Assembly: GCA_043818275.1 (NCBI GenBank)
Contig: JBDRFY010000013.1
Location: 1 to 35,618, forward strand
Source of the DNA: a bacterium
GTDB taxonomy: Bacteria; Babelota; Babeliae; Babelales; JAUWHS01
Direction of reading: 5' to 3'
DNA length: 35,618 nt
Part shown: one piece after another, positions 1,671 through 35,618 of the stretch
How positions within the stretch are numbered: position 1 is the stretch's first letter
Layout of the letters: each line of letters starts with the position of its first letter
Made by a program: the position numbers and the translations under genes
The notes under the pieces: generated by a model
The model's input: the letters and a program-made list of their open reading frames with translations, nothing else
The model's database searches: none
What the model was told of the DNA's origin: nothing

Positions 1671-1838
1671 ATACCTCGCTCGTCCTGAGCGCAGTCGAAG
1701 GATATCGAGCAATCAAATAACAAGAATTATTTATTGAATTGTAATTTCTTATTGCAGGTATTTTTACATAAACAATAATTTTATTTCATTAATTTGCCGC
1801 TCGTAATCCTTCGACTACGCTCAGGACGAGCGGTGTAT
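1671..1838. mobile_element. REPIN/MITE-like element: two inverted REP-like palindromes around an AT-rich core
   Basis: CGCTCGTCCTGAGCGCAGTCGAAGGA (from 1677) and TCCTTCGACTACGCTCAGGACGAGCG (to 1832) are inverted repeats. A homologous copy including the core lies inverted at 35299-35484. Confidence 0.8.
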
Positions 1839-33329: not shown

Positions 33330-34238
33330 ATGTCGGTCATTAAATTAAATAATCACAAAATAGAATTGAGAAACGAAGAAAAAATTTTCTTCCCAAAAAA
33401 TAAAATAACAAAAGGGGATCTGATAAAATACTACAAAGAAATTTCGCCGGTCATGCTGCCTTACCTCAAAGACCGGGCTATTTCTATGCAACGATTTCCC
33501 AGTGGAATTAAGGGCATATCTTTTTATGAAAAGGATGCGCCAGGTTATTTTCCAAAATGGATTAAAACTGTAAATGTTAAACGAAAAACTAATGGAAGTT
33601 ATAATTGTGTTGTTTGTCAAAACGCAGCTACTCTTGTTTACATTGCAAATCAGGGATGCATTACTCCCCATATCTGGTTAAGCACAATAAAAAAATTAAA
33701 CTATCCAGATAAAATTATTTTTGATCTTGATTTAGAAAAGGCGACTCCAACAAATTTTAAACTCGCCTGTCAAACTGCAAAAGCTTTAAAAGAAATTATA
33801 GAATCTATTGGATTATCTGCTTATGTTATGACAACTGGCTCAAAGGGATTGCATGTTTGTATTCCAATTAAAATAGAATATACATTTGATAAAATTCGCG
33901 CATTTGCAAAACAAATCGCTTTAAAAGCAATAGAAAAAAATCCGGATAAACTAACACTTGAATCAAGAAAAGAAAAACGCAAAAACAAATTATTAATTGA
34001 TATTATGCGAAATGGTTTTGGCGCGACTTCGGTTACTCCATATGCGATTCGGCCAATTGAAGGCGCGCCTGTAGCAACACCACTTGAATGGAAAGAGCTT
34101 GATAAGAAAAATTTATCTTCTCAAACATACACAATTAAAAATATTTTTAATCGATTAAGCAAAACTGGCGATGCATGGAAATTGTTGCCAAAAAATAGGA
34201 AATCTTTAAATTTAGCTTTAAAAAAAATACAAGGATAA
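33330..34238 (+). CDS. Stand-alone LigD-type primase-polymerase domain
   Basis: TKGDLIKYY, RFPSGI, PDKIIFDLD, TTGSKGLHV, IDIMRN, PYAIR, PVATPLEWKEL. Confidence 0.9.
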   Translation: MSVIKLNNHKIELRNEEKIFFPKNKITKGDLIKYYKEISPVMLPYLKDRAISMQRFPSGIKGISFYEKDAPGYFPKWIKTVNVKRKTNGSYNCVVCQNAATLVYIANQGCITPHIWLSTIKKLNYPDKIIFDLDLEKATPTNFKLACQTAKALKEIIESIGLSAYVMTTGSKGLHVCIPIKIEYTFDKIRAFAKQIALKAIEKNPDKLTLESRKEKRKNKLLIDIMRNGFGATSVTPYAIRPIEGAPVATPLEWKELDKKNLSSQTYTIKNIFNRLSKTGDAWKLLPKNRKSLNLALKKIQG

Positions 34239-34239
34239 A

Positions 34240-35217
34240 ATGCTTGTCATTAGAAAAAATATTTTTATTTTATTTTTAATCTTTAATTTTTCATTTCTTT
34301 CTATTTTTTCCCAACACAATCAAACATCAATCCACAAACAAATTGAAAACATTAGTAAATCCATAGAGGGTGAGATTGGAGTCGCAGCATTGCACATTGA
34401 GAAAAATAAATTAATTGAGTTTAACGGAAATATAACATTTCCAATGTCAAGCACATATAAATTACCGATAGCCACTTATTGTCTCCATTTAATTGATAAT
34501 GGAAAACTGAATTTAGAAACAACAAAAGTTGTATCAATAAATGATATGCGCCGTTTTTGTTTTATAAAGCCCAAACAAGAACTTACCATTCGCCAACAAA
34601 TTCAACTAATGTTAGAAAAAAGTGATAATGCAACTTCAGACATTATTTTTAAAATGGTAGGAAGCGGTAAACCCATAACTCAATGGTTAAGAAAAAACAA
34701 CATTAAACAAATGCGAATTGATAGGTCAACATTAAAAATGATTGCCGATTATTCTGGTGTAACAAATCTCGGAAACGAAGAAGAATGTACTGTAGAAAAA
34801 GATTGGAAATTGTTAAAAAATGTAACCCCAAAAAATAAAAAACTTGCTTTACAACATTTTTATTGTGATCAACAAGATACTACAACACCAATAGAAATGA
34901 CTAATTTACTAAGAAAGCTTCATAAGGGTGAACTTATAAGGCCTGCCTCAAAAGATTTTTTATTAAAAAGCATGTTAAGATGCAAATGGAAAAAACAACG
35001 TATCACAAAATTATTACCACCCAAAACTATTCTTTGGCATAAAACTGGAAGTATGGATAAAATAATTTCAGATGTTGGTATTTTAAAATTACCAAATAAT
35101 AATGAACATCTTGCTTATGCTATTTATACAAATAAAAGTTCAATGTCTGTAATTAAACAAGATACTGCAATATCAAATATTTCAAAATTATTATTTGATT
35201 ATTTTTCTAAGAAATAA
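34240..35217 (+). CDS. Class A beta-lactamase-like serine hydrolase
   Basis: Signal peptide, FPMSSTYK (SxxK), SDN, DTTTP, HKTGS; atypical omega loop. Confidence 0.85.
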   Translation: MLVIRKNIFILFLIFNFSFLSIFSQHNQTSIHKQIENISKSIEGEIGVAALHIEKNKLIEFNGNITFPMSSTYKLPIATYCLHLIDNGKLNLETTKVVSINDMRRFCFIKPKQELTIRQQIQLMLEKSDNATSDIIFKMVGSGKPITQWLRKNNIKQMRIDRSTLKMIADYSGVTNLGNEEECTVEKDWKLLKNVTPKNKKLALQHFYCDQQDTTTPIEMTNLLRKLHKGELIRPASKDFLLKSMLRCKWKKQRITKLLPPKTILWHKTGSMDKIISDVGILKLPNNNEHLAYAIYTNKSSMSVIKQDTAISNISKLLFDYFSKK

Positions 35218-35298
35218 ATTATTTCTTCTCTTGAAAAAACAGACTATTAATTGATATATAACTGATGTTACGCATATTTTGTTTTAAAGTTTTATATT

Positions 35299-35484
35299 TA
35301 CACCACTCGTCCTGCCTGCCTGCCGAAGCCTTGGCGAAGGTTGGAGCGTAGTCGAAGGATTACGAGCGGCAAACTAAATGAAATAAAATTATTGTTTATG
35401 TATAGAATGTATGCAATGAAAATTTACAATTCAATAAATATTTATTCACGAATTTGTCGCTCGTAATCCTTCGACTGCGCTCAG
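35299..35484. mobile_element. Second REPIN/MITE-like copy; left repeat has a mini-hairpin insert (35315-35344), right repeat is cut by IS110
   Basis: Aligns to the reverse complement of 1671-1838, including the core (ATGAAATAAAA..TTATTGTTTATGTA...TTACAATTCAATAAATA). Confidence 0.8.
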
Positions 35485-35618
35485 CGATTGTGTTAAATTG
35501 CAACAAAATTTTATGCAATTCTAGGATTCCAGGTTGTTTTATTTTTTAACATTGCATTTAATGTGACAATTATTTTTCTCATAACCGCGACAAGTGCAAC
35601 CTTAGGACATTTCCCACG
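35483..35618 (-). mobile_element. Right end of an IS110-family element (runs off the window)
   Basis: Transposase C-terminus, then a 26-nt end AATTTTGTTGCAATTTAACACAATCG and a CT core joined to GAGCGCAGTCGAAGG. Confidence 0.75.
35511..35618 (-). CDS. IS110-family transposase/recombinase, C-terminal 35 aa (partial)
   Basis: RGKCPKVALVAVMRKIIVTLNAMLKNKTTWNPRIA* matches the GKxxKVALVAxMRKxxxxLNAMxK...W tail typical of IS110 proteins. Absent from the ORF track. Confidence 0.8.
   Translation of the reverse strand, partial: RGKCPKVALVAVMRKIIVTLNAMLKNKTTWNPRIA

Follow-up and report, generated by a model that had tools for sequence, protein, structure and literature searches.

An IS621-like insertion sequence, very probably RNA-guided, at the CT core of a palindromic repeat in a Dependentiae genome

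The end of the window and the repeats around it

The window, by which we mean the whole stretch of DNA analyzed here (35,618 nt), is the entire contig C13 (JBDRFY010000013.1) of the genome bin G000, a set of 92 contigs (1.33 Mb, 30% GC) from the phylum Dependentiae, a little-studied phylum of intracellular bacteria. Two adjoining open reading frames of 302 and 325 aa (33330–35217, plus strand) end 40–50 nt before a composite repeat, and past this repeat the contig breaks 134 nt into a multicopy element that we refer to as IS-A. We consider it very probable that these last 134 nt are the right end of an insertion sequence of approximately 1.2 kb that belongs to the IS110 group, resembles IS621, is guided by RNA, and is present in at least two copies in the bin. 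Because the window is an entire contig, there is no adjacent window to read, and we sought the rest of IS-A on other contigs and in sequence collections, using for comparison an order- and phylum-level sample of 261 genomes of 0.5–1.9 Mb each.

On the minus strand, the last 108 nt of the window form an open frame ending in ...LNAMLKNKTTWNPRIA (also given as ...MRKIIVTLNAMLKNKTTWNPRIA-TAA), with the TAA stop at 35511–35513 and all 35 visible codons open. The non-coding right end that follows, AATTTTGTTGCAATTTAACACAATCG, leads into the repeat in the order AATTTTG-TTGCAA-TTTAACACAATCG-CT-GAGCGCAGTCGAAGG (from 35482 downwards), where the sequence after the CT, GAGCGCAGTCGAAGGATTACGAGCG, is the terminus of a palindromic repeat (Table 1). 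The intact copy of this repeat at 1677 reads CGCTCGTCCTGAGCGCAGTCGAAGG, placing the junction on the CT dinucleotide as a first-pass annotation of this DNA had claimed; the strings and coordinates which that annotation gave for the transposase tail, for TTGCAA 13 nt ahead of the CT, and for the CT itself were all correct on the minus strand.

Table 1. Positions of the features at the window end and of one intact repeat copy
Feature	Position	Strand	Basis or remark
3′ end of the IS-A transposase gene	35511..35618	minus	35 codons + TAA, open at the contig end; ORF list
IS-A right end, 26 nt, non-coding	35485..35510	minus	ends ...TTTAACACAATCG; identical at the C12 end
−35-like hexamer TTGCAA	35498..35503	minus	separated from the CT core by 13 nt; would form the outward-facing half of a junction promoter
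CT core at the right junction	35483..35484	minus	CT found at the C13, C12, C49 and C65 junctions
Inner palindromic repeat unit, 139 nt	35344..35482		inverted termini GAGCGyAGTCGAAGGATTACGAGCG, matches at 35482(−) and 35344(+); self-complementary BLAST match
Mini-hairpin insert GCCTGCCTGCCGAAGCCTTGGCGAAGGTTG, 30 nt	35314..35343	plus	occupies CCT|GAGCG at the opposite terminus
Degenerate half of the repeat's terminal site, CACTCGTCCT	35304..35313	plus	terminus alignment
Outer inverted-repeat end, ACTGATGTTACGCATA when read on the plus strand, belonging to a larger composite element	35261..35276	minus	same 16-mer in the C49 flank of the left junction
Intact repeat copy	1677..1832		two empty predicted IS-A targets TCGTCCTGAGC: 1680–1690 (+), 1819–1829 (−)

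The visible tail of the frame is IS110-like, as the first-pass annotation had read it. It matches the C-terminus of the complete IS110 transposase encoded on C62 of the same bin at 18/30 residues (60% over 30 aa; tblastn against the 1.3-Mb genome, E 3e-6), and recurs with 100% identity at the end of contig C12 (tblastn). In addition, 24–26 of its 35 residues match the C-termini of approximately 315-aa proteins that carry both PF01548 and PF02371 (precomputed Pfam), and the tail ends where these full-length proteins end. Since only 35 residues are visible and these lie after the Pfam domains, the predicted catalytic domains of IS-A (DEDD and Ser) would be located beyond our view. The C62 gene (C62:62–1042, minus strand), which scored above cut-off for PF01548 (70.1 bits) and PF02371 (75.9 bits), is the only complete IS110-family gene in the bin, and belongs to an element that we refer to as IS-B. 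The nearest complete relative of IS-A lies on contig C41 of genome G151, and its transposase matches IS621 (8wt6, E 1.5e-28) and ISCro4 (9t56, E 1.7e-29); a sequence search of the PDB with the IS-A tail alone found nothing.

The repeat that receives IS-A belongs to a family dispersed over the bin. Its terminus, GAGCGyAGTCGAAGGAT, has 56 matches on many contigs (up to three mismatches), nearly always preceded by CCGCTCGyCCT, and the 35482 end of the inner repeat unit constitutes the right half of the IS-A target. Among 58 exact GCTCG[T/C]CCT sites, 35 continue into G/AAGC and are intact, nine carry a mini-hairpin, two carry IS-A, and 12 continue otherwise, several of the latter with other repeat modules at the same boundary. 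Two folds are available to the terminus, a CGCTC/GAGCG stem whose loop contains GTCCT (and its CT) and a longer stem; the z-scores of −1.5 and −2.8 are modest.

The mini-hairpins are GC-rich and approximately 30–40 nt long. The one in the window lies between ...CTCGTCCT and GAGCG, either at the CCT|GAGCG boundary or 1 nt further in, an ambiguity caused by the G that recurs at each end of the insert; it had been proposed that this insert lands within 1 nt of the IS-A core boundary, and it does. The insert turns the right half-site after the CT into GCCTG, and the GAGCG on its other side is left without a CT. Under the pairing rules, such a site has ceased to be a predicted IS-A target, and any protection that this would confer follows as a logical consequence of the sequence only. 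We considered whether the mini-hairpin could itself be an IS110-type insertion product and dropped this idea, because its right border lacks a second CT.

Four junctions at one CT core

Two right junctions, at the end of the window and at the end of C12, both read ...ACACAATCG-CT|GAGCG. The C12 end carries the identical 134 nt and CT followed by a different repeat copy, which begins GAGCGTAGTCGAAGGATATCGAGC... and whose far terminus is intact; the repeat copies at the two right junctions differ, reading GAGCGCAG.. and GAGCGTAG.. By searching the bin for CCGCTCGTCCT with other sequence following, we located two left junctions at the starts of C49 and C65, which read CCGCTCGTC-CT|TGTATGTT and in which ..ACCGCTCGTCCT and ..TCCGCTCGTCCT are each followed by the same 130 nt, starting TGTATGTTAAATATC... 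The left junctions can be summarized as ..CGTC-CT|TGTATG, the right junctions as ..AATCG-CT|GAGCG, and the empty sites as CGTC-CT-GAGCG.

From the left and right junctions taken together, IS-A is bounded as CGCTCGTC-CT-[TGTATG...ACAATCG]-CT-GAGCG; this arrangement is found in two distinct copies of the repeat, with the insertion core CT on both sides and without long terminal inverted repeats. IS-A sits at the exact CT of CGCTCGTC-CT-GAGCG twice in this genome, and the missing half of the repeat that the first-pass annotation expected to flank the other end of the element, CGCTCGTC-CT, is present at both C49 and C65. Each pair of contig ends is identical over 141 nt from the contig end (computed for C49 and C65, established by reading for C13 and C12), which fits an assembly graph breaking at a multicopy element. 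Because the outer 16-mer ACTGATGTTACGCATA occurs in both the C49 and the C13 flank, at matching distances, C49, IS-A and C13 probably represent one locus, with one IS-A copy inside one composite repeat. The bin further contains 23 exact copies of TCGTCCTGAGC, which are apparently empty predicted targets.

Junctions that lie at contig ends of a MAG of 92 contigs, with an estimated contamination of 4.19%, might be assembly chimeras or contamination, with the element not in the host chromosome at all. We regard this as extremely unlikely, in that the four contigs are independent and carry a repeat family spread over the whole bin (the 56 terminus matches), the left and right junctions rebuild the target exactly, and the bin contains the related element IS-B within a contig of 63 kb.

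It is also unlikely, if less so, that the ends of these four contigs are what is left of IS110 copies that have died or lost internal sequence (for example, minis lacking a transposase), and not parts of two complete active elements. In favor of such remnants, no part of the body of IS-A is in the assembly, where a search with the G151 transposase finds the C62 element only, and degenerate IS110 copies with in-frame stops are known in relatives (G084 and G164). However, both ends of IS-A are 100% identical between copies (130 and 134 nt) while the host repeats differ, which argues for recent transposition, and the visible frame is open throughout. Moreover, the bin holds no contig under 2002 nt, meaning that a collapsed IS-A contig of approximately 1.2 kb would have been dropped from it.

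Searches in other collections covered both ends and the protein. No exact match to a 46-nt string from the right end or to a 28-nt string from the left-end loop turned up in scans of metagenome contigs. BLAST searches with the left end (against 60 relatives) and with the right end (against all 261 genomes) returned only the bin itself and weak matches to other IS110 elements, IS-A not being found in any of the other 260 genomes searched, and no protein with the IS-A tail was found in protein searches with IS-B, the G151 protein and the P0169 tail region. Three public runs from two studies contain part of the window end (0.46, 0.26 and 0.05 of the sampled words), and alignment of the contigs from these runs to the start of C49 gave one contig of 151 nt, at positions 1–37, with no joints and no loose ends, a result that bears on neither circles, empty sites nor the element body.

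Another repeat copy, at C65:14140–14266, is 100% identical over 84 nt to window positions 35399–35482 and has a mini-hairpin where IS-A sits in the window. We considered this copy as an empty allele of the C49/C13 locus and dropped it as such: because its resemblance to the C49 flank is limited to 77 nt (95%) and is lost further upstream, we read it as a paralogue. Directly beyond it, the 140 nt of C65:14267–14406 (L008), which start CAGGAGTTACGCAATATAACC, are identical to C64:54324–54463 (L009) at a second contig end; they form one end of a third multicopy element, which is inserted mid-repeat, and this end resembles the outer inverted repeat ACTGATGTTACGCATA of the composite repeat.

Guides in the left end and in relatives from Dependentiae

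The left end of IS-A comprises at least 130 nt in which no gene start was seen, and reads ...GCTGATAACATCTCGCTTCGTCCT-C-GATAaaaaaTATC-G-TGCTCAG-C before the contig ends. This layout is that of complete relatives, and represents the 5′ part of a predicted target-binding loop whose 3′ closing stem would lie beyond the contig end. We read guides by one rule, taking as the left guide the 9 nt ending in CT before the small hairpin, and as the right guide the run after the closing G up to AG. The left guide of IS-A, CTTCGTC-CT, matches the target GCTCGTC-CT at 5/7 positions plus the core; the mismatches are the two distal positions (CT versus GC), and TCGTC-CT is identical to the target. For the right guide, most of which is visible, the complement reads CT-GAGCA and matches CT-GAGCG at 4/5 positions plus the core, the last position being mismatched (A versus G). 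The target of about GCTCGTC-CT-GAGC that the first-pass annotation had predicted fits these left-end guides, TCGTC-CT and the complement CT-GAGC, and its central proposal, an IS110 element of the bridge-recombinase family at a CT core inside the repeat, is supported by the guides together with the four junctions and the transposase tail.

With our own covariance model R1, the truncated IS-A left end scored 18 bits (E 0.14, positions 1–58), which is within the range of reverse-strand noise matches on other loci (E 0.001–0.38), and the model placed the fragment correctly, on the right strand and cut at the 3′ end. Rfam 15 yielded no relevant family for the left-end RNA and only chance-level matches to unrelated families.

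Protein searches detected IS110 elements of the IS-A clade in 19 of the 261 genomes, with 17 guide types. The 17 element types are 1157–1245 bp long and show a two-loop bridge-RNA fold; left ends in relatives measure approximately 180–200 nt. Thirteen distinct complete sequences, representing 11 guide types and measuring 1180–1245 bp, start with CT|TGTATG and end with TTGACT-N13-CT; five further types (nine insertions) measure 1157–1221 bp. The consensus of 11 left ends consists of two modules, each made of a stem, an internal loop and a hairpin, with 26 pairs, 14 of which show compensatory changes, and the covariance model built from these 11 finds the RNA at 9/9 further IS110 loci (E 3e-23 to 1.1e-4). 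The donor loop in relatives matches the right end of the element (e.g., ACAATCACT, ACAATTACT, AATAATCGCT) and CTTGTA of the left end, and covaries with right ends that read ..AATCA-CT, ..AATTA-CT, ..AATCG-CT and ..ATTGA.

We compared the guides of 12 element types with their own flanks and with the flanks of the other elements. Left guides matched their own flank at 5.2/7 positions on average versus 2.1/7 for other flanks, and right guides matched at 3.8/5 versus 1.6/5. When guides and flanks of the 12 types were permuted, 0 of 20,000 permutations reached the observed sums, a figure to be read as an indication and not as a probability, because the elements are related and the guides were parsed with the flanks in view. 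In the five types (nine insertions) outside model building, the left guides scored 6, 3, 6 / 7, 7, 7 / 3 / 5 / 6 of 7, and the right guides 4, 3, 4 / 3, 3, 3 / 3 / 2 / 5 of 5. Poor matches also occurred, with 2/7 for the left guide of the G220 element and 2/5 for the right guide of the G237 element.

Two of these relatives insert into sites like that of IS-A. The G253 element has three insertions in GCGCTCGTC-CT|GA.., and its left guide GCTCGTCCT equals all three flanks exactly. The G151 element lies in CCGTTCGCC-CT|GAGCGAAG, and combines the left guide TCGCC-CT with the same right guide as IS-A, such that the T-to-C change relative to TCGTC-CT of IS-A is mirrored in guide and target. From these sites and guides, we conclude that three elements aim at repeat termini of this kind, their guides following the local T/C variant.

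Given the two folds available to the target terminus, one of which holds CT in its loop, we also weighed whether IS-A is an IS110 element whose site is chosen mainly by the structure of the repeat hairpin, through protein-DNA or structure recognition, with guide matches being secondary. A target stem-loop is reported to add specificity in ISPpu10 (2026 preprint, 10.64898/2026.03.19.712850), but the same preprint presents structure as a layer added to RNA pairing and not as its replacement. In addition, guides covary with flanks across elements whose targets share no sequence relation, and the z-scores of the terminus fold are modest. We find site choice mainly by structure very unlikely.

IS-B, for its part, is complete (1201 bp, C62:21–1221; L007), with copies of its right end at the starts of C59 and C39, and its left guide, CCGAGG-CT, is identical to the left flank, CCCGAGG-CT. 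In a genome of the same genus (G001), an orthologue of IS-B that is 87% identical has the left guide CTGGG-CT and the flank CCCTGGG-CT, indicating that guide and target changed together.

Proposed route of insertion and comparison with known systems

In the route that we propose, a DEDD/Ser recombinase would excise IS-A as a circle, in which the right end and the left end are joined across the CT core. This joining would create a predicted junction promoter, consisting of TTGCAA, a spacer of 17 nt (13 nt + CT + TG) and TATGTT. The first-pass annotation had singled out TTGCAA as −35-like, and the hexamer indeed stands where 11/11 complete relatives have TTGACT, 17 nt upstream of the left-end TATGTT once the ends are joined. 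The promoter would drive a bridge RNA encoded in the left end, whose first internal loop would pair with both target strands: the left guide, TCGTC-CT, corresponds to the top strand left of the cut, and the right guide, the complement of CUGAGCA, would pair with CT-GAGC right of the cut. A second loop, predicted to contain ..ACAATCGCT.. and ..TACAAG.., would pair with the joined element ends. Strand exchange at CT would then put IS-A inside the terminal hairpin CGCTC-GTCCT-GAGCG of a repeat with dozens of copies.

A more speculative scenario, which we hold to be quite unlikely, is that IS110 elements and the hairpin modules nested in CCT|GAGCG are rivals for the terminal hairpin's loop, so that the modules effectively immunize the repeat ends. 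This would amount to a three-way arms race among nested selfish hairpins, an RNA-guided insertion sequence that retunes its guides, and a reduced symbiont genome. In a bolder variant, the hairpin modules may themselves be moved by a recombination reaction directed at CT or at the loop.

Published descriptions of IS110 architecture include a CT core, a 9-base left guide, a right guide of at least 4 bases, REP targets and a junction promoter, the last reconstituted across the joined ends (PMC11208160). IS621 of E. coli (Durrant et al., 2024, PMC11208160; structures 8wt6 and others) resembles IS-A in having CT cores on both sides and a long left and short right end; in the target loop of its left-end RNA, with a left guide of 7 nt plus core, a small hairpin and a right guide ending in the complement of the core, the RNA being predicted for IS-A; in targeting the end of a palindromic intergenic repeat (REP); and in the outward −35 box of its right end, a −35-like hexamer in IS-A. 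In contrast, the host of IS-A belongs to the phylum Dependentiae, its repeat family and guide sequences are unrelated to those of IS621, and its right guide seems longer, at core + 4–5 nt versus core + 2 in IS621. The comparison of IS-A itself covers its two ends, and the protein match to IS621 cited above belongs to the nearest complete relative.

ISPpu9 and ISPpu10 of Pseudomonas putida likewise occur in multiple copies in one conserved, repeated intergenic sequence that forms a stem-loop, as reported (PMC12288879; 10.64898/2026.03.19.712850); for IS-A, the hairpin of the Dependentiae repeat may contribute to recognition. The IS1111 group shares with IS-A the DEDD recombinase family and RNA-guided, site-specific insertion, which for IS-A is predicted. 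Its members are described in PMC11208160 as having a long right end with the RNA and subterminal inverted repeats of 7–17 bp, in contrast to the 26-nt right end of IS-A and the guide loop in its left end. Also close are the Dependentiae IS110 elements (G151:C41, three in G253, G033, G136, G243 and others, and IS-B), which share the left end TGTATG and the right end −35-N13-CT; those of G151 and G253 also use the same kind of terminus (..TCGyC-CT-GA..). IS-A differs from these relatives in its own guides and in having TTGCAA versus TTGACT.

We assign IS-A to the IS621-like, bridge-RNA-guided IS110 group as a new member, and see no new mechanism in it. What had been announced as a new bridge-RNA system is better described as a new member of the known one. 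Our literature search did not find Dependentiae and IS110 mentioned together. The position of IS-A in a hairpin repeat of Dependentiae parallels that of such elements in REP sequences elsewhere, and the rules published for bridge RNAs (CT core, guides, repeat targets, junction promoter) hold in this phylum to the point that the unseen half of the insertion site was predicted from 164 bases. The 17 guide types in 19/261 genomes amount to a small series of guides reprogrammed in nature whose natural targets are known, and these compact orthologues of approximately 1.2 kb could be useful for testing guide rules. For the assembly itself, IS-A accounts for several breaks.

Several relatives depart from the common layout. 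In G073 (L036, L054, L060), TT takes the place of the core CT in the right end and right flank (..ACAATCG-TT|GACGC), with AA in the right guide but CT kept in the left guide, and the best register of the left junction varies among copies; the TT may be a natural core variant. At L046 (G114:C9), the left junction carries a tandem duplication of the 18 nt with which the left end begins (TGTATGTTAAAAATAGCT). At L038 (G084:C23), whose ORF has an in-frame TAA, CT-TGTATCAC comes immediately after the right end and resembles the start of a left end, and this may be a tandem or circle-like junction of right and left ends in the chromosome. The right end of the G151:C41 element (L035) measures 97 nt, versus approximately 17–47 nt in others, and holds a GC-rich hairpin module between the stop codon and the −35 box, a location that makes it a selfish hairpin nested inside an insertion sequence. 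Finally, the element at L018/L048 (G056:C17) lies in the same kind of repeat terminus on the other strand, at CCCTTCGACAAG-CT|CAGGGCGAGCGG, which is the reverse complement of CCGCTCGCCCTG-AG-CTTGTCGAAGGG; it uses a neighboring CT, from which it follows that different IS110 elements use different CTs of one hairpin.
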